Part shown: one piece after another, positions 1 to 57,626 of the stretch
How the letters are laid out: each line of letters begins with the position of its first letter
Position numbering within the stretch: position 1 is the first letter of the stretch
DNA from: a virus
Virus record (IMG/VR): IMGVR_UViG_3300045988_064576
Reading direction: 5' to 3' (one strand)
Length of the DNA stretch: 57,626 bases
Made by a program: the position numbers and the translations under genes
The notes under the pieces: model-generated
What the model saw: the letters and a program-made list of their open reading frames with translations, nothing else
Databases searched by the model: none
Told to the model about the DNA's origin: nothing

Positions 1-119
1 AAGAAAAGAAGTTGAAAAAATGACGGATGAACAGTTAGAAAAATTTATTGATTAGCCGAAACGCTCCGACCTTGGAGCGTCAGCCGTGGGATGGTCTCCC
101 GGCTCTGATGATGGCAGAC
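1..119. repeat. Terminal direct repeat: assembly overlap of a circular (or terminally redundant) genome with a 57,507-bp unit
   Basis: Bases 1-119 read identically to 57508-57626. Confidence 0.95.
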
Positions 120-1176: not shown

Positions 1177-1260
1177 AAAACAGGCATTGAAATTGTGAAA
1201 TCGTGAAATTTCCGACCAAAATCTGTGAAAAAATTTTTTGATGGTCGTGGGAATATTTAA

Positions 1261-4489: not shown

Positions 4490-4975
4490 CTAATCTTGAC
4501 TAACTTTTGTTCTTGCATTAGTCTTAGTCAAAGATTTCTCGTCAATTTTCTTTTCAAGTTCTTCCATCTTCGAAAACAATGTGTCAAAGTGCTTGTTAAA
4601 TATCTCTGTGGCTTCGTCTGATAGCCCTATTTTCAATTTTTCTGTATCTTGTGATAACTTGTTAGGGTTATCATTTTGAATCGGTTTAAAAACCATTGTA
4701 GAGATTGTTCCATCTGCGCTCCATTGCTTCGCGTAAATCTCCGACAAGTCACTCTTTGGGAAAAATGCAACGCTTCCATTCATCGGAACATCATTGGCAA
4801 CGATAGAATCTTGTGACTGCACGACTTTACCGAATATTCCCTGTTGAATCTGCTCCGGCTGTTGCTGTTGCTGGAATCTCTGAATGTTCTGCATAGGGTT
4901 ATACGCCTGTTGATATTGTTGATACTGTGGCGCATAACTATTCACCTGTGGCATCTGATACGGATTCATCTGCAT
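4490..4975 (-). CDS. Hypothetical protein with Q/Y/P-rich low-complexity N-terminus
   Basis: 161 aa; MQMNPYQMPQVNSYAPQYQQYQQAYNPMQNIQRFQQQQQPEQ, then a globular part. Confidence 0.55.
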   Translation of the reverse strand: MQMNPYQMPQVNSYAPQYQQYQQAYNPMQNIQRFQQQQQPEQIQQGIFGKVVQSQDSIVANDVPMNGSVAFFPKSDLSEIYAKQWSADGTISTMVFKPIQNDNPNKLSQDTEKLKIGLSDEATEIFNKHFDTLFSKMEELEKKIDEKSLTKTNARTKVSQD

Positions 4976-5099
4976 TTTGCTTTTCCTCCTCGTCCATAAT
5001 GTTTTCGATCGCGTGAACGACCGCCGATTGTGTATTTAAGTCCAGCGTCATAATTGCTGGATGCGAAAATATTTTGGTTAAAATCTCGTCTGTAAACAT
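4938..5099 (-). CDS. Hypothetical protein (53 aa)
   Basis: ATG 5099 after AAGGAG; MFTDEILTKIFSHPAIM...; overlaps the next gene start in another frame. Confidence 0.35.
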   Translation of the reverse strand: MFTDEILTKIFSHPAIMTLDLNTQSAVVHAIENIMDEEEKQNADESVSDATGE

Positions 5100-5264
5100 A
5101 AAGCCTCACTCCTTTATGATTTAATTTTTGCATAAAAAAAGACGCTTAAAGCGACAAATATATGACACTTTAGCGACATCGAAATAAATTATTATATTAA
5201 AAAGTGTAGTAAATACGGCGTATCAGAACGTACTATATGCCATACCCACGGCGTATAGTAGGTG

Positions 5265-6629
5265 CTAAAAATTCTTTAATTGAATTTCCACATTTCCGTT
5301 GACTATAATTATCTTGTCTATTATAGTCTTTAATATCTTGTTTTTAGCTGGCTTGTCGATGTCGTCCCAAACATCGGCAAGTTTTTTAATATTCTCGTAA
5401 ACAAATTGCTTTTTCGGATTGTTGTCTCCGGACTTTTGTTCTTCCTTGATTGAATCGTCGAGGTTTTTTACTTTTGATTCCTGATCTTTTATCATATCTA
5501 AGACTGTATCGTTTCCGTCGGCGTATAATTCATACAGCCGTTTCAATTTTGATTTTTCCTTATCTAACTGCGACTGCATTATGTCTATCTTGTTTTCTTT
5601 TTCTTTTGGCTTATATTTTGACAGATTTACAGATATTTTCAGCATTTCCGATTCAACAATATTCTCGATATTATCCGCCCATTCTATAGAGTTATCGCAA
5701 TCGTTGTTAAAGTTCGGAAGATAGTACAAATCCTTATTCCGTGAGCAGCAATAAATCTTTCTAACTCCATTCGTCCATTTTTGATAACGCATCTTGCAAC
5801 CGCAAACTCCACAATAGCACAGACCTGTAAGCATATTGGGAGTAAGGTTTTGGCAATAAGATTTTTTGCTTCTTCTTGATTTTCTTATTTGCTGTGCCAT
5901 CTCAAACTTATCTTTATCAAAAATAGGTTCGTGAAGTCCTTGGTATATGTTCCCTTTATACGGAATCATCCCTATGTTTACAACACCTGTCAATATGCTT
6001 CTTACAACCAATTCGCTTGTATATCCTAAAATTCTTTGAATCGCTACATCGGAATTTCCGGCGATAAACAAATCAATAGCCTTGTTCGCTTGTTCTGCTC
6101 GTTCCGGAATTGGTATCAATATGCCTTTTTCTTTGCTGTATGTATAACAATAAGGCGTATTCCCTCCACCCATCCAATACCCTTGTTTGACACGTTCCAG
6201 CATTCCTCCACGCATACGAAGCATCATAGTATTCTTATCAAGCTGTGCAAATACAGCCATCATTTGAGTATATGCCTGCTCCATCGGACTGTCATAAGAT
6301 ATTGAATCGTGAACGCACTTAAATTGCACGTTGTTGGGTTGAAAAACTCTTTCAATCATGTATATTCCGTCAACCATACTTCTTGACAATCTATCAAGTT
6401 TGAATGCGACAACACATTTCACACGTTTTCTGCCGCAATCGTTTATTAGCCTTTGCAACTCCGGTCTATTCATATTAGCACCGGTATATCCGTCATCAAT
6501 GTACCAATCAGAAATAATCAATTCGTTTTTTCTACAATACAATTCTATGTCTCGCTTTTGGCTTTCAAGTCCGTTTCCTTCTTCTGCCTGTTTTTCTGTC
6601 GAGACACGCATGTATGCAACACATTCCAT
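5265..6629 (-). CDS. Large serine recombinase (integrase)
   Basis: 454 aa; N-terminal resolvase motif YMRVSTEKQ and DRLSRS; Cys-rich zinc-ribbon CYCGVCGCKM..IYCCS; coiled-coil C-terminus. Confidence 0.9.
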   Translation of the reverse strand: MECVAYMRVSTEKQAEEGNGLESQKRDIELYCRKNELIISDWYIDDGYTGANMNRPELQRLINDCGRKRVKCVVAFKLDRLSRSMVDGIYMIERVFQPNNVQFKCVHDSISYDSPMEQAYTQMMAVFAQLDKNTMMLRMRGGMLERVKQGYWMGGGNTPYCYTYSKEKGILIPIPERAEQANKAIDLFIAGNSDVAIQRILGYTSELVVRSILTGVVNIGMIPYKGNIYQGLHEPIFDKDKFEMAQQIRKSRRSKKSYCQNLTPNMLTGLCYCGVCGCKMRYQKWTNGVRKIYCCSRNKDLYYLPNFNNDCDNSIEWADNIENIVESEMLKISVNLSKYKPKEKENKIDIMQSQLDKEKSKLKRLYELYADGNDTVLDMIKDQESKVKNLDDSIKEEQKSGDNNPKKQFVYENIKKLADVWDDIDKPAKNKILKTIIDKIIIVNGNVEIQLKNF

Positions 6630-6795: not shown

Positions 6796-7007
6796 TTATC
6801 ACCATCTCCTTCAACACGAGATATCTTGTCTCGTATGCAACTAATTTTCCTGTTTACTGTCCTGTCGCATATAGACATCCTATATGCTATTTCCGATATT
6901 GTGCTTCCCCGGCACAGCATTCTAAAAATCTGTTCTTCTTCATCCGTAAAGTTTGCTTTAGCAAGAATCCCCTCAATTTCTGGCTTAGTAAGTCTTGAAA
7001 ACTTCAT
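6786..7007 (-). CDS. Small sigma-70 region-4 / LuxR-type HTH regulator
   Basis: Start set to ATG 7007 after AAGGAGA; EEQIFRMLCRGSTISEIAYRMSICDRTVNRKISCIRDKI. Confidence 0.6.
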   Translation of the reverse strand: MKFSRLTKPEIEGILAKANFTDEEEQIFRMLCRGSTISEIAYRMSICDRTVNRKISCIRDKISRVEGDGDKWL

Positions 7008-7023
7008 AAGCCATTTCTCCTTT

Positions 7024-7608
7024 TTATTTGATAAACAATCTGTTATTGCTCTTAGACATTTTTTCTCTGTTCGTTTTCTTTGCTTTTTCACAATTCATCT
7101 GATAGTGCTTCTCGCAAACCTTGTACCCCGGCTTTACAGGAACCCCACACCAATAGCACAATCCCATTTTCACTCGATCTTTTCCATTTTCTGAAACCGG
7201 CGTTCCTGTTCTGTTTTTTTCTAGGCAACTCTCACATGCACTAGTGTTTTTCGTCATTTTTCTACCACATCTAGGGCAAACTCCGGCGCTTTGTTTGACT
7301 TTATACCTTATTCTTGCATATTCGTTTCTTTTGTCTTTATCTTCCTGCGTTTCTCGTTCTCTTTCTCTTGCCTTTGATTCTGCGTCCTTTGCCCTACATT
7401 CAACGCATGTTTTTTCTTGCCCCATGAGCTTATTTTTTTTACATCGAGGGCAATATCCATGATTTCTATACCAATTTCGTGTCTCCGTTTGATTTATAAC
7501 GTCTTTTTTCGCACATTCAGAACACGTAGATTTTCCCGTCCGATCATTGATTTTGCCACATTGACCGCATCTTCCCTCTGCAATATTTTTGTGATATGTA
7601 CTACTCAT
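7024..7608 (-). CDS. Protein with four CxxC..CxxC zinc-ribbon repeats
   Basis: CGQC..CSEC, CPRC..CVEC, CPRC..CESC, CYWC..CEKH. Start uncertain: ATG 7608, TTG 7626, or ATT 7650 placed 7 nt after GGAGG. Confidence 0.6.
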   Translation of the reverse strand: MSSTYHKNIAEGRCGQCGKINDRTGKSTCSECAKKDVINQTETRNWYRNHGYCPRCKKNKLMGQEKTCVECRAKDAESKARERERETQEDKDKRNEYARIRYKVKQSAGVCPRCGRKMTKNTSACESCLEKNRTGTPVSENGKDRVKMGLCYWCGVPVKPGYKVCEKHYQMNCEKAKKTNREKMSKSNNRLFIK

Positions 7609-7637
7609 AGTTTTAAAGGATAGCAAATCGCGATTTA

Positions 7638-7647
7638 TGTCCGGACA
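7638..7647. promoter_or_regulatory. Palindrome TGTCCGGACA, copy 2 of 3
   Basis: Minus-sense context GGAGGCAGATAGATTTGTCCGGACATAAATCGCG, immediately upstream of the zinc-ribbon gene. Confidence 0.5.
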
Positions 7648-7675
7648 AATCTATCTGCCTCCTTTCTCTGAATTT

Positions 7676-7912
7676 TTACTCTTTCTTCCGCATAACCAAT
7701 TCATAATCGGAATCCGGGTATGTGATTGAATACTCTGTGCGCTTTCCGTGTTCATTTTCCATGTTACCAATAAACCATTCATATACAGCAGCTATAACAT
7801 CATCTGTAACATCTGTTTTATCGCCAACCCACATCTGTTTTTCTGTGTCTTGCGTTCCATAAAAAATTTTGTTTGTGATTGGGCTTACTCCAAATCCTTT
7901 TTTTCTCGCCAT
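7676..7912 (-). CDS. Hypothetical protein
   Basis: Start set to ATG 7912 (MARKKGFG). Confidence 0.5.
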   Translation of the reverse strand: MARKKGFGVSPITNKIFYGTQDTEKQMWVGDKTDVTDDVIAAVYEWFIGNMENEHGKRTEYSITYPDSDYELVMRKKE

Positions 7913-7942
7913 CTTCAAACCTTCTTTCTTCATCCATAAATA

Positions 7943-8695
7943 CTACCTCAATCTGTAATTGCCACTTTCTTTGAACTCGACCACATAACCCTTAGACATC
8001 TCAATGATTCTGCTCCCAAGAGCTTCATCAACCGAAAGCAAATCCTTCGGATATTTCTCTGTTGAAACGATCATAGGCAACCGCTTCAAGTATCTGTGAT
8101 TGATAAGCTCGTACATAATGTTGATATCGCTTTCTGTGATTTTTCCCTTGAACAGATCGTCAATAAACAGAACGCTCACATTCTTCATGCGGTTTATCTC
8201 TTCTGAATACTCCACATTGTCTGTAATATTCTGTTTCAAGCGTGTAATTGCATCCCGGTAACTTACATACTGAACAGGTGTGCCATTCTTGATAAGCTGG
8301 TTAGCAACGCAAAAGCCTAACATTGTCTTACCCCTTCCCGGAAGTCCTGTAAGTAATAAACTGTTATTTTTCTGATATCGTTGCATCGGTAAATCCTTGC
8401 AATACTTAGCAGCGGTTGCTTTCGCAATCTGTAATTCCGGTTCACTAAACGTCTGGAAATCATTAAATCGAACATTCACATCTTCCGCATCAATGCCACT
8501 TGCTTTCATCAATCTGCGATATACTGTTTGCGCCATGCAATCACAATCTCTTGCTACCGACCTACCATCTGCATCCTTAACGATTACAATGTGTGTGTCT
8601 TTGCATATGGGGCATTTATAATCCGGCTTGAAATTCCTGTTTGCGCTTTCTACTCGCATCCTTCGTAGTTCATCAACCATTCCCATCTGATTCAC
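7943..8695 (-). CDS. DnaC/IstB-like AAA+ helicase loader
   Basis: Walker A GLPGRGKT; Walker B VLFIDDL; N-terminal CPICKD..CDC zinc motif. Confidence 0.8.
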   Translation of the reverse strand: MNQMGMVDELRRMRVESANRNFKPDYKCPICKDTHIVIVKDADGRSVARDCDCMAQTVYRRLMKASGIDAEDVNVRFNDFQTFSEPELQIAKATAAKYCKDLPMQRYQKNNSLLLTGLPGRGKTMLGFCVANQLIKNGTPVQYVSYRDAITRLKQNITDNVEYSEEINRMKNVSVLFIDDLFKGKITESDINIMYELINHRYLKRLPMIVSTEKYPKDLLSVDEALGSRIIEMSKGYVVEFKESGNYRLR

Positions 8696-8993
8696 ACTCC
8701 CTTATAATTTCTACCGCCCTGATGAGTCCATCAGAAAATGTATTTTCATTTTTGCAAATGGCGTGTTCGTCGGCGTATTTGTCGAAGTTTTCACAAGATG
8801 CATCTGATTCTTCGTTAAGTCGGTCAATTAAGCGGTCCGTATTAAATGCAGTAGGTACTTTATGTGCCATTATATCCTGCAAATCTGCGTTATATTCAAG
8901 TATTGACCACTCGCTAGGTGCTCCCTTGTCAATCTGTTTTTTGAAATATTCTCTGATAGCCTTTTCAACGTCTCCAATATCAACTAATCTCAT
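8673..8993 (-). CDS. Hypothetical protein, paralogue of the next gene
   Basis: MRLVDIGDVEKAIREYF compared with MRLIDVADLEKFIREN in 8990-9259. Confidence 0.5.
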   Translation of the reverse strand: MRLVDIGDVEKAIREYFKKQIDKGAPSEWSILEYNADLQDIMAHKVPTAFNTDRLIDRLNEESDASCENFDKYADEHAICKNENTFSDGLIRAVEIIRECESDGNG

Positions 8994-9259
8994 TCTTTAC
9001 CACCACCCTTTATGATCTCGATTGCATCATCCAAATTAACTACAAGCTCTCCGCCCATGCCGTCATTCCCGAACCGTTCGTATGATACTTTCTTTAAACG
9101 CTCTACAACCTTATCTACGTCATAGGAGGTCTTTACGAGCGGTAATGCTTCGTGCCACCTACCGTCATTCCCTGCGACTAACAATAAATGGTCATCTCCT
9201 ATGACACATACATTCTCGCGTATGAATTTTTCAAGGTCTGCTACATCAATCAATCTCAT
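8990..9259 (-). CDS. Hypothetical protein, paralogue of the previous gene
   Basis: ORF track 89 aa; ATGA-type overlap with neighbours. Confidence 0.5.
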   Translation of the reverse strand: MRLIDVADLEKFIRENVCVIGDDHLLLVAGNDGRWHEALPLVKTSYDVDKVVERLKKVSYERFGNDGMGGELVVNLDDAIEIIKGGGKE

Positions 9260-9534
9260 TCTTCATCACTCCAATCTAACTTCTGTCCGCACTGGTGGCA
9301 GTACTTTAAATCGCTTCTAACTATTCTTCTTTCGCATACTGGGCATAACCATAATGCTGTACAACCTAAATTTGCAATATATAGCGGTTTCTTAGGAATT
9401 TGCTTTTCAAGTGCTTGTATTGCCATTCCATAAGCATTTTCAAAAGAACATCCCCATGAAGTATCACAAGGGATTGCCTTACCAAGTTCATTGCAGTCAT
9501 ATTTTAGTTCTTCGATAGCTTCACTCTCTGTCAT
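9256..9534 (-). CDS. Hypothetical protein with C-terminal zinc ribbon
   Basis: Start ATG 9534 (MTESEAIEEL); CPVC..CHQC. Confidence 0.5.
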   Translation of the reverse strand: MTESEAIEELKYDCNELGKAIPCDTSWGCSFENAYGMAIQALEKQIPKKPLYIANLGCTALWLCPVCERRIVRSDLKYCHQCGQKLDWSDEE

Positions 9535-9535
9535 A

Positions 9536-9700
9536 TTATCCCTCACTTTCTTCTTCTTCCGCATTGCCTACTGCAAGTGCTAAAAATTCGTCAAATTCAT
9601 CTGTTGTAATATCCCAACTGTCGCACCAATCGTACAAGGATATTCTTTGGCACTCTTTTTTAAGTGCATATGCTATTGTTTCTGCTGTTGATTTCTTCAT
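9536..9700 (-). CDS. Hypothetical protein (54 aa)
   Basis: Unlisted ORF MKKSTAETIAYALKKECQ..., abutting both neighbours. Confidence 0.4.
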   Translation of the reverse strand: MKKSTAETIAYALKKECQRISLYDWCDSWDITTDEFDEFLALAVGNAEEEESEG

Positions 9701-9889
9701 CTAATTTTCCTCGCTTTCTTCAATACAAAAATTCCAAAACCACTGAAATGCTTTAAGAATTTGTTCTTTAGTCGTTCCATTGTGTGTTGGCATTTCTAAG
9801 AACATTTTTAATGCTTCAATTTTTTCATCTTCTGAATATTTTTCAGAATTTATGTTATGAACTATTGCACAAGCAACTCCTATATTCAT
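9701..9889 (-). CDS. Hypothetical protein
   Basis: ORF track 62 aa. Confidence 0.4.
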   Translation of the reverse strand: MNIGVACAIVHNINSEKYSEDEKIEALKMFLEMPTHNGTTKEQILKAFQWFWNFCIEESEEN

Positions 9890-9951
9890 TTAATTTCCCT
9901 CACTTTCTGGTTTATCACACACCTCAAACTTGATAACCCATACCCACGGAT

Positions 9952-10386
9952 TTATTCAATACTCCTCTCTAATAACTCCATATTATCAAATGTATTTCCA
10001 ATAATCTCCATACAATCCACATAATCGTAAATGTGTTCTTCTTCGTAAGTTCCATCTTCGAGTAACACGTTAAAATAAAATCCTGCTTCATCTTCATTCC
10101 AACCAATGTAGCCACAGCATTCTTCAGCCAGACAATTTACAATATCATTTTCCCATATCAGCTTGCCGTTCTTATCCTTCAAGCCTGTGCATTGGCAGAT
10201 TGTGGATGGGTCTATTTCGCTCCACCCGTCTGTTTCGCTACTAGAATAAAATATCGTGGTAGGTTCAAATATTAGATGAACTTCTTTGCCGTACATATCT
10301 AAACCTTTTACATACTGTCCTGTAACCCATTCTCCATTGTCAATTCTCTTCGCTTTAAATAAATATCTATCTTCCATTTTCTTCAC
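9952..10386 (-). CDS. YopX-family protein
   Basis: ICQCTGLKDKNGKLIWENDIV, a motif typical of YopX (from memory). Confidence 0.65.
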   Translation of the reverse strand: MKKMEDRYLFKAKRIDNGEWVTGQYVKGLDMYGKEVHLIFEPTTIFYSSSETDGWSEIDPSTICQCTGLKDKNGKLIWENDIVNCLAEECCGYIGWNEDEAGFYFNVLLEDGTYEEEHIYDYVDCMEIIGNTFDNMELLERSIE

Positions 10387-10774
10387 CTCTCAATTCTTTC
10401 AGTTTTGCTTCTGCTTCGGATTTTGTAAGGAATACTGTTTTACCAATATTCTCTAGAAAATAACAACTCTCACCCATGTCATCATCATTGATAGCATCAA
10501 TTCTTATGACTGTTCTGTCTTTATGAAGCTGCTTAATATATAGCTGCAAAACACGCATCATAATAACCGGCTTTTTTGCTCCTTTATTTACCCGGTACAA
10601 AGTATCTCCCACTTTACAAGGTAGAATAACAAGTCTGCACTGTTCCTCCAAGTCCTCATATTCGCCCAATTTATCTATCAGCAAATTCTTATAGTCGTAA
10701 CTGTTTTCTCCACACGGTAAACTATCAAAAGCACCATGTGTTCCATCTGAATAAGTCTTGGTTAATCTACTCAT
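10367..10774 (-). CDS. Hypothetical protein
   Basis: ORF track 135 aa. Confidence 0.5.
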   Translation of the reverse strand: MSRLTKTYSDGTHGAFDSLPCGENSYDYKNLLIDKLGEYEDLEEQCRLVILPCKVGDTLYRVNKGAKKPVIMMRVLQLYIKQLHKDRTVIRIDAINDDDMGESCYFLENIGKTVFLTKSEAEAKLKELRGEENGR

Positions 10775-10786
10775 TTTTTTCTCCTT

Positions 10787-11590
10787 TCACTCTCCAAACA
10801 TTTTATTTATTTCTTCGTCGCTCATAATTGGCACGCTCTGTCTCTGCCGTTCTGCAAGCGAATCTAACTGCATATCGGTTACGGATTTAGGCTTTGCATC
10901 TTCGGATATATGTCTGCTTCCATAATCATTTTTAAGTCCATATACATCCGACCAGCAATGATCTACCGACTGATTCAAAATCTTAATTGCCAACTTAGTA
11001 TCTCCACCAGACAATCTTTCAATCTTATTTTTCATACGTGTAAGTGCCTGCTTCGTAGCAATCGGCTTTTTAATCTTCTTGCGCATATCCAAAAATTCAG
11101 CGAATGCAGAATTAAGATCGGGATCATCATAATGTTTCGTTTTTGCCCCTATATTATTCTTATATTCTTTACTTCTTTTATTCTTTACTTCTTTTATAAT
11201 AGGAAGGTTCGTTATCTGTTCGTTATCTGATTGCATTTTGATTGCATCGGTGCTTGTGATTTCATCGCATTTTTGCTTGTTATCTGATTGATACAAATTG
11301 TAGTTTTTTATAGTAAATACGCTATATTTACTATGTGATTTGCTTGTGATTTCGCCTGTGCTTTTAAGGTGCTTTAGCGCGTTGCGAACTTCATTGTCTG
11401 TTAAGCCTGTTTCAGATGCCAATTTTGATATGGAAGATGGAAAAGAACCACGCTCGATCAGTTCGCCTTTGTAGTACCCATCTTTCCAATATGCAGACAC
11501 AAGCATGAAGAAAAACAATCTAAATGTGTTGAAATCATCCCACCATTCCCATTCAAGAATCTTCCGATCTATCTTTACAAAGTTTCCCAT
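10787..11590 (-). CDS. Phage replisome organiser / DnaD-like replication protein
   Basis: Start ATG 11590 after GAGGAG; MGNFVKIDRKILEWEWWDD..FRLFFFML N-terminal winged-helix-type motif; C-terminal DnaD-like region. Confidence 0.65.
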   Translation of the reverse strand: MGNFVKIDRKILEWEWWDDFNTFRLFFFMLVSAYWKDGYYKGELIERGSFPSSISKLASETGLTDNEVRNALKHLKSTGEITSKSHSKYSVFTIKNYNLYQSDNKQKCDEITSTDAIKMQSDNEQITNLPIIKEVKNKRSKEYKNNIGAKTKHYDDPDLNSAFAEFLDMRKKIKKPIATKQALTRMKNKIERLSGGDTKLAIKILNQSVDHCWSDVYGLKNDYGSRHISEDAKPKSVTDMQLDSLAERQRQSVPIMSDEEINKMFGE

Positions 11591-11597
11591 AAAATCA

Positions 11598-11903
11598 TCA
11601 CTCCTCAAAGATTGCAATTCCATGTTTCAATGCGTAAAGGTGTTCTTCACATGCACAGGGGCTATTCTGCCATCCCTTTAACATGTAAATAGCAAAGCAC
11701 ATAGACAACATGCATATAGACATCTTCATATATTCTTCATGCGTCGTATCTTCCGGCATATTAGAATTTACTTTTGCTGGGTTGATTACACTGTATTCTG
11801 CATTTGCTCCATTTAAGCGTTTCTCAGCTTCTTCAAAGCGTTCCATGTAGTCTGTAGTTCCCGTGATCGGACCGCTAATATAAATCCTAATTTTCTTAAC
11901 CAT
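11598..11903 (-). CDS. DUF4406 / nucleoside 2-deoxyribosyltransferase-like protein
   Basis: IYISGPITG...NP...GWQNS pattern. Confidence 0.55.
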   Translation of the reverse strand: MVKKIRIYISGPITGTTDYMERFEEAEKRLNGANAEYSVINPAKVNSNMPEDTTHEEYMKMSICMLSMCFAIYMLKGWQNSPCACEEHLYALKHGIAIFEE

Positions 11904-12213
11904 TGTCTTTCAACTCCTTTGCAATTTTGAGAAGATCATCGCGCGTAAGATTCTTACATTCTCCAGCGTAATATCCACATTGTTTATCTACCGCTTTGAT
12001 AAAATCATCAATCGCTTTATCGTAAATATCTTCAACAGTATTTACGTCGTATGCATCACATAATGCCTGATGCTGTTCTCTGTATGCTTTTAATTCTTCC
12101 AGCCATTCTGCAAGCTGTTCATTCTTCTTAGCAAATTCTAAATCCAAATCGACACGATTGTTCTCTGCATCGTCTTTAAAATCTTTTATCGCTTCATCAA
12201 TTGTCATTATCAT
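11896..12213 (-). CDS. Hypothetical acidic protein
   Basis: ORF track 105 aa. Confidence 0.5.
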   Translation of the reverse strand: MIMTIDEAIKDFKDDAENNRVDLDLEFAKKNEQLAEWLEELKAYREQHQALCDAYDVNTVEDIYDKAIDDFIKAVDKQCGYYAGECKNLTRDDLLKIAKELKDNG

Positions 12214-12216
12214 TGA

Positions 12217-12453
12217 CTATATACCTCCTTCCCACGCTTTAAGCATTGATTTCTTGCTATCTATCGAATTCTCGTTGTAATAGCATCCAAGTTCCCAATA
12301 ATACTGATTCTCCGGCGTGTAAATCGTAACCTGTGACATATAATCACGTATCATAGCCATAGCCTTATCTTTCCGCTTCTTGTCAAGGAAGATAATCGGT
12401 CGTATTCCGTAACGCTTCTTATATGATTTTTTCCACTTTCTGTGATTCATCAC
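12217..12453 (-). CDS. Hypothetical basic protein
   Basis: ORF track 78 aa. Confidence 0.4.
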   Translation of the reverse strand: MMNHRKWKKSYKKRYGIRPIIFLDKKRKDKAMAMIRDYMSQVTIYTPENQYYWELGCYYNENSIDSKKSMLKAWEGGI

Positions 12454-27065: not shown

Positions 27066-27950
27066 TTAGTGAATAAGAGACATAAATGTGTTATATCCAA
27101 CAATTCCATCAACCGTAAGCTGATAGTCTCTCTGATACTGTTTTACAGCAGATTCAAGGTTAGAACCGAATATACCCGGACATTCAAGTTGACAAACATA
27201 TCCTTTAAGCATCAACAGTATTTGTACCGCAGTGACCATATATTGTTTCTCTCCACGCTTGACATAATGACTTCCAAGAGCTGTCTTAGAACCATTACCC
27301 CAGATGCCATCAACAGCAATTCCTTTCTTGTAATCAAGATTGATTGCTGTCTGCAAAACCTTAATTCCGGCTTTGATTGTGTTGACTCCTCGGATTCCAT
27401 CAACAGAAATTTTGACACCAGCAAAATTATTTGCGTGTGTCTGTCCGTTTCTCACGATTGCATCTTTTCCCGGCACATTTGGAACTGGATTATTTTCCGG
27501 CTTGCTGACGTCAGCAGAAACAGAACCATTTGTAATATAGTCAAACGGATAATTCTTTCCCGGACACGCTGTCGAACCGACATCTCTGTGTCTAACAACT
27601 GTTGTGATTTTATATTTGTTCTTTAAGTAAGCGATAAGCTCCTTAATTGCATTTTTCTGTGCATCCGACATTGTTTCATTCTCGAAGTTTCCTTCTGCAC
27701 AAATTCCGATTGAATTGTAGTTAGAACCAGAAGCGTGTGCGCCGATTGCGTATTCAGGACGCCCACGATAAATTGAACCATCCTTGCGAACATAAAAGTG
27801 ATATCCGATTCCAGACCATCCTTTAGCTTTGTGTACGTTGTGAACAGCTTCAACAGAGCCATTCATTGCTGCATGGTGAAGAATAATTCTCTTTGTGCTT
27901 GATCTCTTTGATAAAGTTCCGAATTTTAAGTTTGTTTCAATAATGTTCAT
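27066..27950 (-). CDS. Endolysin: N-acetylmuramoyl-L-alanine amidase with two peptidoglycan-binding repeats
   Basis: IILHHAA..GIGYHFYV..AIGAHA (Amidase_2/PGRP); C-terminal ..AVDGIWGNGSKTAL.. and ..TVDGIVGYNTFMSL. Confidence 0.9.
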   Translation of the reverse strand: MNIIETNLKFGTLSKRSSTKRIILHHAAMNGSVEAVHNVHKAKGWSGIGYHFYVRKDGSIYRGRPEYAIGAHASGSNYNSIGICAEGNFENETMSDAQKNAIKELIAYLKNKYKITTVVRHRDVGSTACPGKNYPFDYITNGSVSADVSKPENNPVPNVPGKDAIVRNGQTHANNFAGVKISVDGIRGVNTIKAGIKVLQTAINLDYKKGIAVDGIWGNGSKTALGSHYVKRGEKQYMVTAVQILLMLKGYVCQLECPGIFGSNLESAVKQYQRDYQLTVDGIVGYNTFMSLIH

Positions 27951-28146: not shown

Positions 28147-28160
28147 CTAAACTCGAATAT
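28147..28160 (+). repeat. Left inverted repeat CTAAACTCGAATAT
   Basis: Perfect reverse complement of 28843-28856. Confidence 0.95.
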
Positions 28161-28506
28161 GAATCACTTCATAGCAGAAGATATTTCATTTACAGAAAAT
28201 GTTAAAATTGGAACGATTTACGCACATAAAAACGGGAATTGCGTAACAATCACATCATGGTCGCAAGCAAGTCAAGATTTAGGAACATCAAGTAGTTATG
28301 CAACTGTTGGAGTTCTGCCACAACAATATATACCCAATTATTCGTTATTGTCGTATTGTTGTATTAACAACGATATATTGTGTCAGCTCATTATTGGAAA
28401 TGATGGTCTAATTAAAATTGGATATTCGCTTTCGCTTACCAACAACTCAAGTTGTGACATTCATAAGGGTATAGCAATTTATTTTACAATCACTTATGTA
28501 ATTTAA
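28161..28506 (+). CDS. Silent alternative tail-fibre C-terminal cassette (115 codons)
   Basis: Open frame continuous with the left repeat; no SD or promoter of its own; MNHFIAEDISFTENVKIG...FTITYVI. Confidence 0.55.
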
Positions 28507-28535
28507 TCAGTAGTATTCGTTCTATACGATTTGCT

Positions 28536-30359
28536 TTATGCTCTAATTTGAGTTATTTGCATAAGATCCGCATTCCATCCAGCACAGTCTACTGCTGTAT
28601 AAAACAATCGCCCTGTTAAATTGTCGAACATTAAATAACCTGTTATATAATACGATGGATTTTTAAATACAACAAATCCAGATGACATACCAGAATAACA
28701 TTTTATTGTTCTAGTTAATTCTGCATTGGTAGTTGTTGGATTTATAGATACAATGATTTCTCCTTTATCCATTAGTAAATTATTTTCGTATATTTGCATG
28801 TTGGAAGAAAAATTCAGTGCAGTTGATATTATTTGCTTGTAGATATTCGAGTTTAGGGTACTTAACGCTCCTGTCACAGTTCCATCTCCAATCGTTGATA
28901 TATCTGTTGTTCCCATCTTTGATAGCAACCATCTTACATTTTTGAAGATAGTAGAAACTTTGCTAAAAATCGAAGCATGTGTTTCTCCACTTGTCAGCAA
29001 TGCTGGTGCCGTAGAATCGCCTGTTGTTGAATCGTTCGATGTGAATGTGACAGTGTTATCTTGGCTATTTCCATCGGTCGCTAAAGCTCCGATATTTGCG
29101 CATGTGATATTTACATTACCGCGCCTGAAAGTTGTTTCATTTGCTCCCTTAACACCTGTTACAGGACTTCCGGCTAAGACATCCCATTTACCGGCTTCTG
29201 TCTTGTAAACATTGCTTCCTGCCGGTTCTGTGATTCCTGCACCCTCAACAAAATCAGAAGTTGTAACAAATTCATCGGATATATTGTACATATCACCGGC
29301 ACTCGCAGAACTAACAGACGGTAAATTTGCAAAAGTGACAGTTCCCATTGGTCGCAATGCTCCGCTGAACGATTCAGAGATGGCTTTTGCCTGTTCATAA
29401 TACTTCTTTGCGTTGGCTTCGGAAGTAGCGGCGTTAGATGCACTTGTGGATGCCGCCGCCGCTTTGGATGTTGCTGTGGATGCACTATTGGCTGCCGCTG
29501 TTGCACTTTGGGCTGCTTCACTCGCCTTTGTGCTTGCCGTTGACATGCTTTCAGCTGCGGATGATGCACTCTTGCTTGCATTGCTCTCTGACGTTGCAGA
29601 TTTGGTTGCAGATGCACTTGCTGATGATGCACTTGATGCCGCTTCACTCGCCTTAGTGCTTGCCGTTGATGCAGAATTAGCAGATGCAGTCGCACTCTTG
29701 CTTGCCTGTTCACTGTAATACTTTGAGTTATCGGTATCTTCTCCGTCACGAACGCCTGCGCCACCAATAGCGTATGATTGTGATAACTTGGCATTGTCGT
29801 ATGCAGAATTACTACTTGTCGTCGCTGAATTTGCCATAGATTCCGCTTTTGTAGCCTGTGCAGTTATCTTGGCAAGATAGCCTGTCTCCAACATTGCATC
29901 AGTAATCGAACCATTCTTAACAGATGCAGATATCTTACCTGTCGAATCGACAGAGAATGCAATCGTCGTGGAATCCTTGAACTCATATTGCGTGATAAGT
30001 GCAGACATGTCGACATATTGTTTAGAACCGTCTGATAACGTAAGCACAAGTCTCTGCGTCAAATAATCATAAGTGAAATTCGTTGCAATCTTCTCTAAAT
30101 TCGTGTCATAAGTCTTAGTAGAACCATTCTTATATGTTACTGTAATTACACCATCTGCATCGTTGACAGATATATCAGCGACCATGCCATTGACGACTTG
30201 TGCGTCTGCTTTCAAGACATCTAATTGCACAATTCTATCATCCAACGCATCAATGCCTGATTCTATGTGGTTCATATCCGATGCATTTAACGGTGTGTCT
30301 GTCGATGGTCGATTCTTCCAAAATAATCGTTCAAATGCTTTTTTCCATCCTTGTGACAT
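28536..30359 (-). CDS. Tail fibre / receptor-binding protein (expressed orientation)
   Basis: 607 aa; N-terminal WKKAFERLFWKNRPSTDTPLNASDMNHIE; long S/A/T-rich repeats; last structural gene before lysis. Confidence 0.8.
   Translation of the reverse strand: MSQGWKKAFERLFWKNRPSTDTPLNASDMNHIESGIDALDDRIVQLDVLKADAQVVNGMVADISVNDADGVITVTYKNGSTKTYDTNLEKIATNFTYDYLTQRLVLTLSDGSKQYVDMSALITQYEFKDSTTIAFSVDSTGKISASVKNGSITDAMLETGYLAKITAQATKAESMANSATTSSNSAYDNAKLSQSYAIGGAGVRDGEDTDNSKYYSEQASKSATASANSASTASTKASEAASSASSASASATKSATSESNASKSASSAAESMSTASTKASEAAQSATAAANSASTATSKAAAASTSASNAATSEANAKKYYEQAKAISESFSGALRPMGTVTFANLPSVSSASAGDMYNISDEFVTTSDFVEGAGITEPAGSNVYKTEAGKWDVLAGSPVTGVKGANETTFRRGNVNITCANIGALATDGNSQDNTVTFTSNDSTTGDSTAPALLTSGETHASIFSKVSTIFKNVRWLLSKMGTTDISTIGDGTVTGALSTLNSNIYKQIISTALNFSSNMQIYENNLLMDKGEIIVSINPTTTNAELTRTIKCYSGMSSGFVVFKNPSYYITGYLMFDNLTGRLFYTAVDCAGWNADLMQITQIRA
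28843..28856 (-). repeat. Right inverted repeat (codons 502-505 of the fibre gene)
   Basis: ATATTCGAGTTTAG on the plus strand = reverse complement of the left repeat. Confidence 0.95.
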
Positions 30360-50699: not shown

Positions 50700-51473
50700 T
50701 CACATAACAATATCGTGAAACTTCTTGTGGCAATCGGAACAAAGAACTATTAAATCTTTATCTGCAACACTTCTTATGTGTTCTTCCCCGTGTCGATCGT
50801 ATTTTTTATGGTGTACTTGAAGAATTATTCCTTTTTTAGAACATAACTCACATGAATAATTGGACTTTTTTAATTTGTAATTCCTTACTCCTTCCCAATA
50901 AGGAGTTTCCAGGAAGTCGCTATATTTCAATTCTTTTACGCTTTTCTCAACCATATTATCGTCGAGCCAATATTTATCCCAAAATCCATTTTTCATTATG
51001 ATTGATATCTTTTGATTAGCTTTAAGCCCTTTTAGAAACTCTCTGTTTGGGTTTACGTAATAATTTATATATTTCATTGTTTCTGATCTATATTGAGCTT
51101 TACAATCTTCTGTATATTTGTCGCGTTCTTCTTTTTCCTTACGCTTTATTTCATCTTTGCATTTTTCGCAAAAAGAAATGTTTTTATTAACAGATCCGTC
51201 TCTTACAGATCTTACAATTTCAACAACTCTTGTTTTTGAGGCATTCTCGCTGTATTCGCATCCACATTTTTTGCAATGCAGTTTGACTATATAAAACGAT
51301 TCTTCCTTTTTTGGATTTTTATCATATTTGTAAAATGCATTCAACATGTCATTTGTTTTTGCCTTTGCTAATAAATCCAATAATTCTGAATCAATACAAT
51401 CTCCTCGCATTATCAACCTTTTATCTTTCCCATTGTTAGGGAAAATTATTGATTTTATAAACTCTATATCCAT
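50700..51473 (-). CDS. HNH endonuclease
   Basis: C-terminal CELC..VHHKKY..CSDCHKKFH; start ATG 51473. Confidence 0.8.
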   Translation of the reverse strand: MDIEFIKSIIFPNNGKDKRLIMRGDCIDSELLDLLAKAKTNDMLNAFYKYDKNPKKEESFYIVKLHCKKCGCEYSENASKTRVVEIVRSVRDGSVNKNISFCEKCKDEIKRKEKEERDKYTEDCKAQYRSETMKYINYYVNPNREFLKGLKANQKISIIMKNGFWDKYWLDDNMVEKSVKELKYSDFLETPYWEGVRNYKLKKSNYSCELCSKKGIILQVHHKKYDRHGEEHIRSVADKDLIVLCSDCHKKFHDIVM

Positions 51474-51573
51474 AATCAATACCTCCGCTTGATATTATTC
51501 CGCTAAAACAATAAATCCAGCAAACAGGCACAGCGGAAGTGCTTTTCGGTAGCTAACCTAGTTTGCTGTTAAA

Positions 51574-51663
51574 TGGAGAAGATAGGAATTGAACCTATAA
51601 TGTTTACCGCGTGGGAACAGATTTACAGTCTGCCGCAACACCACCAATCGTTGCCGCTTCTCC
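51574..51663 (-). tRNA. tRNA-Tyr (GTA), class II
   Basis: Acceptor GGAGAAG/CTTCTCC; anticodon arm GCAGA-CTGTAAA-TCTGT; long variable region; T arm ATAGG-TTCAATT-CCTAT. Confidence 0.7.
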
Positions 51664-52052
51664 ATGTGCGGTTTCCGATGCAGACATTGTAACCGGTGTG
51701 GTATGCCATGCATCGACATTTTTAATTTCGGCAGGGAATACCGCAACGCCTGCCTATCCGGTTGCGAACCGGACTCTTGATGCGGTGTGGATTTGCACCA
51801 CACATGAAATTCCGTTAGTTAGTCTGCACCTACGAATAGGGAAAAATGGATTTTTATTTTCTAACGGATTTATTGGTGTAATTGCTTACAGCTTTTTACC
51901 AGACTTGTTAATAGCAATTCTTGTCGCACACCTTTTTCTTAACCATTGATTAGCGTTTACCTATTTCGCCACGCATCAACTCACATACAGGTTGGTTTTA
52001 GGATAATACAGATAACCAACAACTATATTTCCATTTCACTTGTATGTGAGAA

Positions 52053-52137
52053 CGCCGACATCGTGAATCGAACACGAACAACATTTATATGTTGGATAGC
52101 TTAGCAAGCTATTGGAATACCATTATCCCATATCGGC
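52053..52137 (-). tRNA. tRNA-Ser (GCT), class II
   Basis: Acceptor GCCGATA/TGTCGGC; anticodon arm ATAGC-TTGCTAA-GCTAT; variable arm CAACAT-ATAA-ATGTTG; T arm TCGTG-TTCGATT-CACGA. Confidence 0.85.
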
Positions 52138-52204
52138 AAAACACCGCCTGTTACGGTATGCACATCCGAAAATGTGCATGGTTGGATTCCACAACATTGG
52201 GAGA

Positions 52205-52228
52205 ACAAAAAATGCCCCTTTGCAAGGG
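52205..52228 (-). terminator. Terminator inside the tRNA array
   Basis: Minus sense CCCTT-GCA-AAGGG, followed by GCATTTTTTG. Confidence 0.5.
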
Positions 52229-52229
52229 A

Positions 52230-52303
52230 ATCGACACGGAAGACTCGAACTCCACCTATATCGCAATATGCGAATTATGCTAGCCAATTACACTACATGT
52301 CGA
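52230..52303 (-). ncRNA. Aberrant tRNA-like element (no canonical anticodon arm)
   Basis: Acceptor TCGACAT/GTGTCGA and T loop TTCGAGT fit a 74-nt tRNA. The centre only folds as TCGC-ATATT-GCGA. Confidence 0.4.
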
Positions 52304-52495
52304 AGCGACTTTTTTCGCCGCGGGTTAGTCGAAATTGTGTGGCGCACGCGTGAACACCACGCAAAATCCAAGACTGTTCGTTAGTCAATTATCGCGAATC
52401 AGTGACATAGAATCAGACAAGATATTACATTCACAACCCGATAAAAAATAGTTTGTTGCGTCAAAACGTATTCCTGGGTATGCAGGTTGTGAAAT

Positions 52496-52579
52496 ACGAA
52501 GCACCCGGAATCGAACCGGAATTTACGGGAAAACGTGGGGTGTGTAAAACCGTATGATCTGCCATTGATCTATACTTCG
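52496..52579 (-). ncRNA. tRNA-like element with a 21-nt anticodon loop
   Basis: Acceptor CGAAGTA/TGCTTCG; D arm GATC-AATGGCA-GATC; T arm TCCGG-TTCGATT-CCGGG. Stem TACGG/CCGTA encloses TTTTACACACCCCACGTTTTC. Confidence 0.4.
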
Positions 52580-52769
52580 TGTGCGCATCCTTCTTGTGGA
52601 GGGAAAATGCGCAAAGGAGAAATGTGTGTTCCCCATGGGATAAATGGGTTTATACGTGCCGGCATTCAACCGGCAAAACCCACCGAGCCTTGTGACGGCT
52701 CTTTAATCAGCATTCCGCTAGTGGGTTACGAAAGGAGGATTCCAAAATGAAAAACATTAAGAATCCAAA

Positions 52770-52841
52770 CTGCCCTAGTTGGATTCGAACCAACAAATGC
52801 AGGAGTCAAAGTCCTGTGCCTTACCCTTTGGCGATAGAGCA
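52770..52841 (-). tRNA. tRNA-Gln (TTG)
   Basis: U1:A72 acceptor TGCTCTA/TAGGGCA; anticodon arm CAGGA-CTTTGAC-TCCTG; T arm GTTGG-TTCGAAT-CCAAC. Confidence 0.85.
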
Positions 52842-52850
52842 TAAAAACGC

Positions 52851-53444
52851 TTATGCAGCGTATTCTGACAAAATCCTGTCTAAAGTCGGTCGTGATACAC
52901 CGATATTCTTCGCAAATGCAGACTTTGTGATCTTACCGGACCGGTAAAGAATCAAATTGCTATCAAGCAATTCACTATCTACAGTTTTCTTTGTGCCACC
53001 CTTGTATTTTCCTTCTTTCTTTGCGATGGCAATTCCTTCTGCCTGTCTCTCTCTGATATGTTCTCGTTCAAGATTCGCAACATAAGAAAGAATCTGCAAT
53101 ACCAGATCAGCGATAAATGTATCTGTCAAGTCTCCGGTTCTTCCGATAGTCGTGTCAAGCAACGGCATATCGAGGACCTTAATATCTGCTTTAATCGTCT
53201 TAGTAATTCTTCGCCATTCATCCATGATTTCATCATAGTTTCTACCGAGCCGGTCGATAGACAGAACAATCAAAACATCATCGCTTGTTAAGTTGGCAAT
53301 CATAGTCTGATAATCAGGTCTTTCAAAGTCCTTACCAGATAACTTGTCAGTGTAAATCTTTTCACATCCAGCATTTGTAAGTGCTTCTAACTGTCTTGCA
53401 AGGTTCTGTTCCTTGGTTGACACTCTCGCATAACCTATAATCAT
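52851..53444 (-). CDS. Small serine recombinase (resolvase/invertase family)
   Basis: MIIGYARVSTKEQ..DRLGRN..C-terminal HTH. Start ATG 53444 after AAGGGG; the ORF-track N-terminal extension runs into the repeats. Confidence 0.85.
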   Translation of the reverse strand: MIIGYARVSTKEQNLARQLEALTNAGCEKIYTDKLSGKDFERPDYQTMIANLTSDDVLIVLSIDRLGRNYDEIMDEWRRITKTIKADIKVLDMPLLDTTIGRTGDLTDTFIADLVLQILSYVANLEREHIRERQAEGIAIAKKEGKYKGGTKKTVDSELLDSNLILYRSGKITKSAFAKNIGVSRPTLDRILSEYAA

Positions 53445-53486
53445 AAATACACACCCCTTATCTTTAATTGATATGGGTATTATATC

Positions 53487-53561
53487 ATATGTTGTATTGA
53501 TTTTCAATACATTTCAATACATTTCAATACATTTCAATACATTGTATCGACTTTCAATACA
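53487..53561. repeat. TCAATACA operator array: one inverted copy plus five direct copies (four in 10-bp tandem)
   Basis: tgtattga (53487-94), then ttcaatacat x4 (53501-41) and a fifth copy at 53552-61. Overlaps the -35 of the recombinase promoter TTGAAA-17-TATAAT. Confidence 0.9.
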
Positions 53562-56718: not shown

Positions 56719-56767
56719 AATTACCACCCTCCAGCCGTTCGGCTGCCTTTCGTTTTTGTTTGATCTT

Positions 56768-56796
56768 ATTATAACGCTATCGTTATATTATGTCAA
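56768..56796 (-). promoter_or_regulatory. Promoter with an RHH-type operator in the spacer (leftward, P2)
   Basis: Minus sense TTGACA-TAATATAACGATAGCGT-TATAAT. Confidence 0.55.
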
Positions 56797-56813
56797 TAGT
56801 TTTTCCAACTTTT

Positions 56814-57044
56814 TCAATCCATAAACGGACATTTACCCGAATCGCCTTGATCCGCTTGATCTTCTGTGATTTTTTGCTGATCTTCTAAGTGATCAAGCAC
56901 ACATTTAACTATAAATCCGTTTAGGCTTTCTCCTGCTGCCGCTCTGATCCGCTCCTCATCTTCTTTTTTGAATCTTACAAGAGCCTTGAAATATGCGTTT
57001 TTTTCATATTTAGCGGTTGCTTTTGCTTGCGCCTTTGTTGCCAT
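56814..57044 (-). CDS. Ribbon-helix-helix-like regulator
   Basis: 76 aa; ..YFKALVRFKKEDEERIRAAAGESLNGFIVKCVLDHL; flanked by ATAACG-N4-CGTTAT palindromes. Confidence 0.55.
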   Translation of the reverse strand: MATKAQAKATAKYEKNAYFKALVRFKKEDEERIRAAAGESLNGFIVKCVLDHLEDQQKITEDQADQGDSGKCPFMD

Positions 57045-57077
57045 AATAACGCCACCTTCCTATATAATGATAGCGTT

Positions 57078-57106
57078 ATTATAACGCTACTATATATATA
57101 TGTCAA
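57078..57106 (-). promoter_or_regulatory. Promoter with operator (leftward, P1, drives the RHH gene)
   Basis: Minus sense TTGACA-17 nt-TATAAT, overlapping the palindrome TAGCGTTAT-T-ATAACGCTA (57072-57090). Confidence 0.55.
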
Positions 57107-57239
57107 TGCTTTTATAAAGATATCGTTATTATAACGCTACTATATAATATAGAAGGAAAGCAACATATAAAGCTAGCTTTATACATATTGCACAATGAAT
57201 ATATAATGATAGCGTTATATATTTATGCATTATTCCATC

Positions 57240-57268
57240 TTGTAATAATATAACGATAGCGTTATACT
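57240..57268 (+). promoter_or_regulatory. Promoter with operator (rightward, drives the small plus-strand operon containing the ribozyme)
   Basis: TTGTAA-TAATATAACGATAGCGT-TATACT; the 17-nt spacer is identical to that of P2. Confidence 0.5.
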
Positions 57269-57316
57269 ATAACCAAGTTAAGAAACCAAGCACCAAACGA
57301 AAGGAATGAATCAAAT

Positions 57317-57433: not shown

Positions 57434-57562
57434 ATGGAAAGATCTATTTTAGAAAATATGGTATTTGCTTTCATGGTCGGAGAATTAGGAATTGAACCGA
57501 TCACAGCAAGAAAAGAAGTTGAAAAAATGACGGATGAACAGTTAGAAAAATTTATTGATTAG
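57434..57562 (+). CDS. Hypothetical peptide (42 aa); its stop abuts the hammerhead
   Basis: RBS AAGGAGG; MERSILENMVFAFMVGELGIEPITARKEVEKMTDEQLEKFID. Confidence 0.45.
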   Translation: MERSILENMVFAFMVGELGIEPITARKEVEKMTDEQLEKFID

Positions 57563-57626
57563 CCGAAACGCTCCGACCTTGGAGCGTCAGCCGTGGGATG
57601 GTCTCCCGGCTCTGATGATGGCAGAC
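57508..57626. repeat. Second copy of the terminal overlap
   Basis: Identical to 1-119. Confidence 0.95.

Follow-up and report, generated by a model that had tools for sequence, protein, structure and literature searches.

The stretch of DNA analysed here (the window, 57,626 nucleotides (nt), IMG/VR virus record IMGVR_UViG_3300045988_064576) contains a tail-fibre gene whose 3′ end, together with an opposed coding cassette, lies between two inverted copies of a 14-bp sequence. An earlier note had proposed that inversion of this segment would fuse the constant part of the fibre, in frame, to a different C-terminal tip. The locus comprises the following features.

28857-30359, minus strand: constant fibre trunk (codons 1-501) with an Ala/Ser-rich repeat region, outside the candidate invertible segment
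28843-28856, minus strand: putative crossover site 1, at the trunk/tip junction of the expressed fibre; its core, CTAAACTCGAATAT, encodes L-N-S-N (codons 502-505)
28161-28842, no strand assigned: candidate invertible segment, 682 bp, made up of two tail-to-tail tip cassettes
28536-28842, minus strand: tip G (IYKQIISTALNF...), 102 amino acids (aa) and a stop, the C-terminal tip expressed in the present orientation
28159-28506, plus strand: tip H (MNHFIAEDISF...ITYVI), 115 aa and a stop, silent in the window; the last two bases of the core complete its first codon
28147-28160, plus strand: putative crossover site 2, the same 14-bp core inverted, directly before the silent tip cassette and at the outer boundary of the module
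27066-27950, minus strand: endolysin (Amidase_2 + PG_binding_1), the conserved outer neighbour of the module

The fibre open reading frame (ORF) occupies 28536-30359 on the minus strand and encodes 607 aa, codons 502-505 (LNSN) being followed by 102 aa. Reading of the ORFs bore out this C-terminus, the 115-codon frame on the plus strand and the spacing of exactly 29 bp between the two stops (28507-28535), all of which had been described in the earlier note. Its coordinates were correct throughout, including the positions and strands of both repeats, and translation agreed with its statement that the two repeats share a reading phase (L-N-S-N). The 682-bp segment contains no ORF besides the two tips, so no assembly gene. 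A scan of the region gave nothing above the shuffled background, neither a promoter-like site before tip H nor a terminator in the gap between the two cassettes, and no GGAGG-type ribosome-binding site was visible by eye before the tip H ATG, consistent with the proposal that this frame has no Shine–Dalgarno sequence or promoter of its own. The two tips had also been called unrelated, and no sequence similarity between G and H was detectable.

Pfam returned no family for the fibre or for tip H, PHROGs returned none for tip H, and neither a blastn search of the region against GenBank phages nor a search of IMG/VR for the tip H junction pattern gave a match. An AlphaFold2 model of tip H, built from a 12-sequence alignment, had a mean predicted local distance difference test score of 34 and was unusable. 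Within the trunk, an Ala/Ser/Thr-rich repeat tract (SASTASTKASEAA...) at 29400-29730 on the minus strand is encoded by DNA with direct repeats of 25-51 nt.

The core CTAAACTCGAATAT occurs exactly once on each strand, giving two copies in the whole window, where no third copy was found with up to one mismatch allowed. Ungapped extension of the pair gave 21 nt at 86% identity. When the window was shuffled under a first-order Markov model, exact 14-mer inverted pairs within 1 kb arose at a mean of 0.4 per window and at least one was present in 25% of shuffles; the real window has 4. The suggestion that such a pair is very unlikely by chance therefore fails. A 14-mer inverted pair alone is weak evidence, and its weight comes from its position, its reading frame and its conservation across genomes.

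Two more inverted-repeat pairs within 1 kb were seen elsewhere in the window (1238-1252 with 2147-2161, and 50981-50999 with 51836-51854), the first 15 nt long and the second 14 nt, extendable to 19 nt; their number is above the chance expectation.

The conservation of the site was analysed in 26 IMG/VR contigs of the window family (distal tail protein 91-99% identical) together with loci from protein and DNA searches; related loci are given L numbers and fibre proteins P numbers below. Several phage lineages together supplied 48 distinct contexts of the core, in which 27 left flanks are combined with 25 right flanks, and the core was exact in all related loci, which provides the comparison with relatives that the earlier note had called for. 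Every locus with a homologue of tip H carries the exact 14-mer, in up to five copies. Across the 48 contexts the 12 central nucleotides, TAAACTCGAATA, are invariant and the edge positions are Y and W; the information content drops sharply on both sides of this core of 12-14 nt, and the flanks are unconstrained. The site is always located either at a trunk/tip junction or at the front of a silent, inverted tip cassette.

Codon usage at the junction is informative in this respect. In 25 distinct trunk junctions (59 loci) the LNSN codons show zero synonymous variation, with Ser encoded by TCG throughout, whereas the residues immediately before them (G, T, V, G, A, L, S, T), conserved to the same degree, use 2-4 codons each. 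The constraint must therefore act on the DNA and not on the protein.

One left flank may be followed by different tips, and one tip preceded by different flanks, a pattern that reads as the trace of DNA broken and rejoined again and again precisely at the core. The homology of the window to L001, L004, L006, L007 and L010 begins exactly at 28147, and in a single protein cluster at 90% identity no fewer than 10 different tips follow the LNSN of one and the same 501-aa trunk; one member of this cluster is annotated as from 'Siphoviridae sp. ct7EW56'. A scan of the species-representative genomes of GTDB for the trunk/site junction gave a single match, in a metagenome-assembled genome of an uncultured Lachnospiraceae bacterium, where the locus ends just past the site and the following tip is unreadable.

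The predicted product of inversion, the trunk fused in frame to tip H, exists in L147, a 54-kb ENA contig with a trunk, flank and endolysin of the window type. Its 682-bp segment has just 3 mismatches to that of the window (99.6% identity) and runs the opposite way with respect to the flanks; LNSN leads from the trunk into tip H, and tip G is left as the silent cassette. Immediately outside the sites, blocks of 100 bp match between the window and L147 at only 78-95%, and the identity jumps at the sites. A second inverted pair was found within the window family, with other tips: a 562-bp segment of L112 and L119 is 94% identical when inverted, against 55% in direct alignment, between flanks that are collinear at 92% and 98%. 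The G/H pair itself is 96.6-99.6% identical across the diverged backbones of the window, L006, L007, L144 and L147. These comparisons support the assignment of the segment between the repeats as an inversion cassette that would exchange the C-terminal tip of the fibre in frame. The tract of high identity that the window shares with L006 ends only at 29057, some 200 bp beyond the trunk site, and homologous exchange in the conserved distal trunk must therefore also occur.

Tip H is a genuine fibre end elsewhere, forming the C-terminus of the fibre in P0008-P0010, L131, L132, L146 and L147, including the 431-aa fibres of another lineage (P0008-P0010; L131, L132). All the tip H homologues found by search had been called as short stand-alone ORFs. 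The silent cassette in L010 is nucleotide-identical to the expressed copy in L132, and the tip H of the window is nucleotide-identical to the copy in L006. Across silent and expressed copies the ratio of non-synonymous to synonymous substitution rates (dN/dS) is 0.12-0.26. Values this low indicate purifying selection on the silent cassette, which on an evolutionary time scale must therefore be expressed on a regular basis.

Tip H was also found fused to an unrelated fibre-like N-terminus of 165-193 aa (P0007, P0144, P0145; locus L008, 3428-3925). The fusion is via (L/I)NSN or a similar junction, in a different phage in which the gene lies between those for the endolysin and the portal.

Complete arrays in relatives have 3-5 sites and several silent cassettes, and next to these cassettes or amid them lies a tyrosine recombinase gene whose product is about 330 aa long, or 284 aa in some. 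This gene adjoins the cassettes in L001, L002, L006, L007, L010, L131, L132 and L144, with mutual identities of 63-100%; between lineages (L001, L006/L131/L132, L144) the enzymes are 63-76% identical, yet the site is unchanged. Pfam analysis showed the catalytic domain PF00589 and a SAM-like N-terminal core-binding domain. Scores of 213-224 bits against the NCBIfam XerA model (cut-off 220) make the enzyme Xer-like, and the array recombinase gave no match to an Rci-specific model. Motifs of the catalytic type (TGCRVSE, GKGNKER, HPHRFRRTF, LGHQS and MRYC, with the R-K-H-R-H-Y residues) could be read in the sequences. In L144 a 504-aa trunk and the same G/H pair as in the window (97.6% over 765 bp) are accompanied by an intact 329-aa recombinase beside the silent tip H. 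In L132 five sites span both the recombinase and the endolysin gene (6937-11207); in arrays of this type some inversions would flip the lysis gene relative to its promoter.

The window family presents the recombinase in various states. The 284-aa form is found in L121 and L122, and the same length is conserved in many other contigs; fragments remain in L108, L114, L115, L117, L125 and L127, and smaller remnants in L111 and L106. The fibre-to-endolysin region of the window, L105, L112 and L119 contains no recombinase sequence. The first 119 nt of the window (1-119) are identical to the last 119 nt (57508-57626) and the assembly is therefore a closed circle of 57,507 bp; a tblastn search of this closed genome with four tyrosine recombinases from related loci found none.

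Three further observations were made on the arrays and their enzyme. A cassette of 64-67 aa (KQDKNCYIYN...MEFLSMQNRSEIKW...) follows the site variant CTAAACTCGAATAA in L108 (9856-10059, minus strand) and L131 (6986-7192, plus strand); it adjoins the tyrosine recombinase, is fused to the trunk in P0136 to give a 569-aa fibre, and may represent either a tip of minimal length or a small gene caught up among the cassettes. In L001, a 306-kb bacterial contig, the cassette pair INNIIL.../MITKN... is present twice (8241-8899 and 11703-12361), flanking the endolysin, tip H and the recombinase, and is either a true duplication or the result of assembly merging two shufflon states. Finally, the cultured Clostridium perfringens phage phiCp-D (MW478291, L148) encodes at 4941-5918 a Xer-like 'integrase' that is 31.6% identical to the shufflon recombinase and sits between the tail and holin/endolysin genes, matching the position of the recombinase in the present loci; the annotation of that region lists no inverted cassettes.

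Taken together, these results make it likely that the repeats of the window are the crossover sites of a site-specific inversion module for the receptor-binding C-terminal tip of the fibre, an orphan member of a tail-fibre shufflon family served by tyrosine invertases, with the enzyme supplied in trans. The family as a whole appears to be one of gut, Lachnospiraceae-type, siphovirus-like phages and prophages. Strand exchange within the core TAAACTCGAATA, which also codes for Leu-Asn-Ser-Asn, would flip the 682-bp segment, and the 501-aa trunk with its LNSN would then be read into tip G, as at present, or into tip H. The sites are assigned to the tyrosine recombinase because site and enzyme co-occur in relatives. 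The module of the window would be an orphan in having two sites and two cassettes without that enzyme, and a co-resident or co-infecting relative would have to provide the recombinase in trans, whether for inversion or for trading the entire cassette pair with another phage. A pair exchanged via two inverted sites could be inserted in either orientation, and homologous exchange in the conserved distal trunk would operate alongside the recombinase-driven events. When no such enzyme is provided, the phage would be locked with tip G on. We infer the identity of the catalyst, its action in trans and the effect on host range.

Whether the window itself still switches must be judged separately. As a complete circular genome that lacks the tyrosine recombinase it gives no support to autonomous switching, which is doubtful. 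A protein collection of about 15 billion entries has the exact 607-aa fibre on 25 contigs, a separate count giving 23, and exact look-up of the 620-aa inverted product found none, as would fit a locked state; a protein search likewise found no trunk of the window type fused to tip H. The intact sites, the intact tip H and the breaks in identity with L147, on the other hand, provide evidence for continuing activity or for recent site-specific events on backbones that have no recombinase.

Several points count against the proposed module, the absence of the exact 620-aa protein from that collection being one of them. No binding arms around the short asymmetric site could be defined. The difference in orientation was seen in comparisons between related genomes. 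Relatives that lack the recombinase differ in orientation (L147 from the window, L112 from L119), and some enzyme must therefore have acted on them or on their recent ancestors; the loci fetched for L147, L112 and L119 are parts of contigs, in which a distant recombinase is possible.

One way in which the orphan module might be served is that recombinase-less phages are free-riders on a communal pool of tips, their cassettes being flipped or exchanged through the core by the invertase of a prophage of another lineage. This is put forward tentatively, as somewhat less probable than its opposite. If it is true, tips move horizontally among unrelated backbones and the breakpoints fall precisely at the sites, which would amount to recombinase-mediated cassette exchange in nature.

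The alternative that survives best is that the module is a frozen relic acquired from a recombinase-bearing phage and locked with tip G on, the differences in orientation being ancestral or due to separate acquisitions. The genome lacks a tyrosine recombinase, the tip G fibre is on 25 contigs and neither the exact 620-aa product nor the fusion of trunk to tip H was found, and the window family forms a decay series of recombinase fragments and of degenerate sites with 12-aa remnants. Both sites of the window are perfect, however, and its tip H is intact and identical in nucleotides to the copy in L006. In addition, L147 has the 99.6% segment flipped and its identity to the window breaks off precisely at the sites, which points to a recent site-specific event on such a backbone. 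A frozen relic is considered unlikely.

The window encodes two serine recombinases.

52851-53507, minus strand: small serine recombinase of the resolvase/invertase type, 218 aa, Resolvase (PF00239) + HTH_7
5265-6629, minus strand: large serine recombinase, 454 aa, phrog_95 'integrase' (E = 1.6e-99), not part of the switch

The earlier note had listed the first of these as the only recombinase of invertase size, 24 kb away from the fibre, which is right; it had missed the second, which is probably the phage integrase. The small enzyme had also been hinted at as the catalyst, and a Gin/Cin-type invertase with a displaced gene, acting over 24 kb, deserves consideration. Its family assignment would suit this role (PF00239 and HTH_7; phrog_125 'DNA invertase', E = 2.9e-57), it is alone of its size in the closed genome, and all members of the window family carry its gene; relatives without the tyrosine recombinase have, moreover, flipped. 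Its presence, however, does not track the cassettes: it is 95-99% identical in members with two cassettes, with one cassette or with a degenerate second site. As a core gene of the family, whatever the cassette state, it is therefore an unlikely catalyst. The loci fetched from other lineages with the same site yielded no homologue; there the site co-occurs with the Xer-like tyrosine recombinase instead. Nor does the site, with 12-14 conserved nt and no symmetry, have the 26-bp dyad of serine-invertase sites. The small serine recombinase is thus, by a little, an even less probable explanation than a frozen relic.

Inverted repeats near the small serine recombinase were considered as a substrate for inversion and rejected: the palindromic motif TATAACGCTATCGTTATA, with at least 4 copies in 500 bp in both orientations (56760-57276), is a repeated palindrome that looks like an operator or iteron array. 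Immediately downstream of this recombinase, at 51501-52841 on the minus strand, lie four tRNA genes (Tyr-GTA, Ser-GCT, Val-TAC and Gln-TTG), and a match to the int-alpA-like small RNA (40.8 bits) was found within the same interval, beside the tRNA cluster.

It is very improbable that there is no dedicated recombinase at all, with LNSN as a conserved linker and the tips shuffled by homologous or microhomology-mediated recombination. The conservation of the distal trunk across lineages and the tract shared with L006, which extends about 200 bp beyond the trunk site to 29057, would be expected from such shuffling, but 14 bp is too short for efficient RecA-type exchange, and the breakpoints fall exactly at the core in many independent combinations. 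Moreover, the core is always inverted before silent cassettes, its conservation as DNA exceeds what the protein requires, and complete arrays embed a recombinase gene. A chance repeat beside an ordinary small plus-strand gene, for which the roughly 0.4 pairs expected per window and the listing of the ORF by gene callers as a separate protein of 115-133 aa could be cited, is refuted by the fusion of this ORF to fibre trunks, the conservation of the site in 48 contexts and the inverted segment in L147.

A diversity-generating retroelement was dismissed as well: no template/variable direct repeat was evident and no reverse transcriptase was present among the ORFs scanned, no targeted search having been made.

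Tail fibres and tyrosine recombinases are among the categories enriched in a survey of gene-altering inversions (PMC9881135), and a system of this category is therefore to be expected. Full-text searches of the literature found no description of this site or family. The closest described system, by architecture and description, is the Rin shufflon of Bifidobacterium breve and B. longum prophages (Mavrich et al. 2018, Sci Rep 8:12772, PMC6109161), which has also been reported from Eggerthella lenta prophages (PMC8778435). There, every variable cassette is preceded by an asymmetric repeat of 11 bp, the N-terminal part is constant and the invertase is of the tyrosine type (PMC6109161, PMC8778435). 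In both systems the receptor-binding protein has an unchanging N-terminal part to which alternative C-terminal cassettes, little alike in sequence, are attached, a short asymmetric repeat lies directly before each cassette (inverted for the silent ones here), the gene for a tyrosine-family invertase stands beside the cassettes (here in relatives only, not in the window), and inversions are seen by comparing prophages. The differences lie in the host, Actinobacteria for Rin and Clostridia of the Lachnospiraceae type here, and in the site, the 11-bp TTCCCTAACCC of Rin (rix core, PMC6109161) being unrelated to the longer, 14-bp CTAAACTCGAATAT. The sites described here also flank the recombinase and endolysin genes in complete relatives such as L132, and the copy in the window has two cassettes and no invertase gene. 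What appears noteworthy is that the recombinase has been lost and that the cassette pair seemingly moves between backbones at the sites.

The module also resembles the invertible segments of Mu (G/Gin), P1 (C/Cin), e14 (P/Pin) and p15B (Min), in which an inverted segment with opposed exons exchanges the C-terminus of the fibre in frame and the constant part of the fibre, with its promoter, lies outside. In those systems, however, a small serine invertase is encoded next to the segment, whereas the only one here is 24 kb away and the enzyme associated with the sites in relatives is a tyrosine recombinase. Their sites are 26 bp long and dyad-symmetric, with a central 2-bp core and a Fis-bound enhancer, in contrast to the asymmetric 12-14 bp site of this family, and a fibre-assembly gene is co-inverted with the tips, whereas the present segment contains no accessory gene. 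The Gin, Cin, Pin and Min invertases can complement one another in trans, which gives a precedent for an orphan segment that is flipped by a foreign enzyme. The R64/IncI1 shufflon (Rci, sfx sites, PilV tips) combines multi-cassette inversion of C-terminal adhesin tips with a tyrosine recombinase. Its sites are asymmetric 19-bp repeats in which only the spacer and one arm are conserved, and it serves a plasmid pilus adhesin, not a phage fibre; the array recombinase of the present family differs from Rci in scoring as Xer-like.

Tip-swapping by inversion lets a temperate phage hedge on host receptors and is among the few programmed host-range mechanisms known. The family described here would extend the tyrosine-invertase version from Actinobacteria to abundant phages of gut Clostridia; the literature found is confined to Bifidobacterium and Eggerthella prophages. 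A compact, invariant 14-bp site is now defined, together with dozens of natural cassette combinations, and the same cassette pair is seen on diverged backbones with breaks in identity exactly at the sites, including genomes that no longer encode the enzyme. It can now be tested whether gut phages share receptor-binding tips through a recombinase acting in trans, and whether phase variation accounts for metagenomic phage 'strains' whose only difference is the fibre tip. Engineering of phage host range might likewise make use of the short site and small recombinase.

In its remaining gene content the window reads as a siphovirus-like temperate phage. It encodes a terminase, a portal, a major head protein, a tape measure protein of 1,492 aa and a distal tail protein of 711 aa with a Peptidase_S74 domain, as well as a CI-like repressor, an anti-repressor and RecT. 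A type II hammerhead ribozyme (RF02276) was found at 54-123 on the plus strand, just after a small ORF at the assembly junction, with a score of 64.6 bits against a gathering score of 37; a second match to RF02276, at 57561-57626, corresponds to the terminal overlap.

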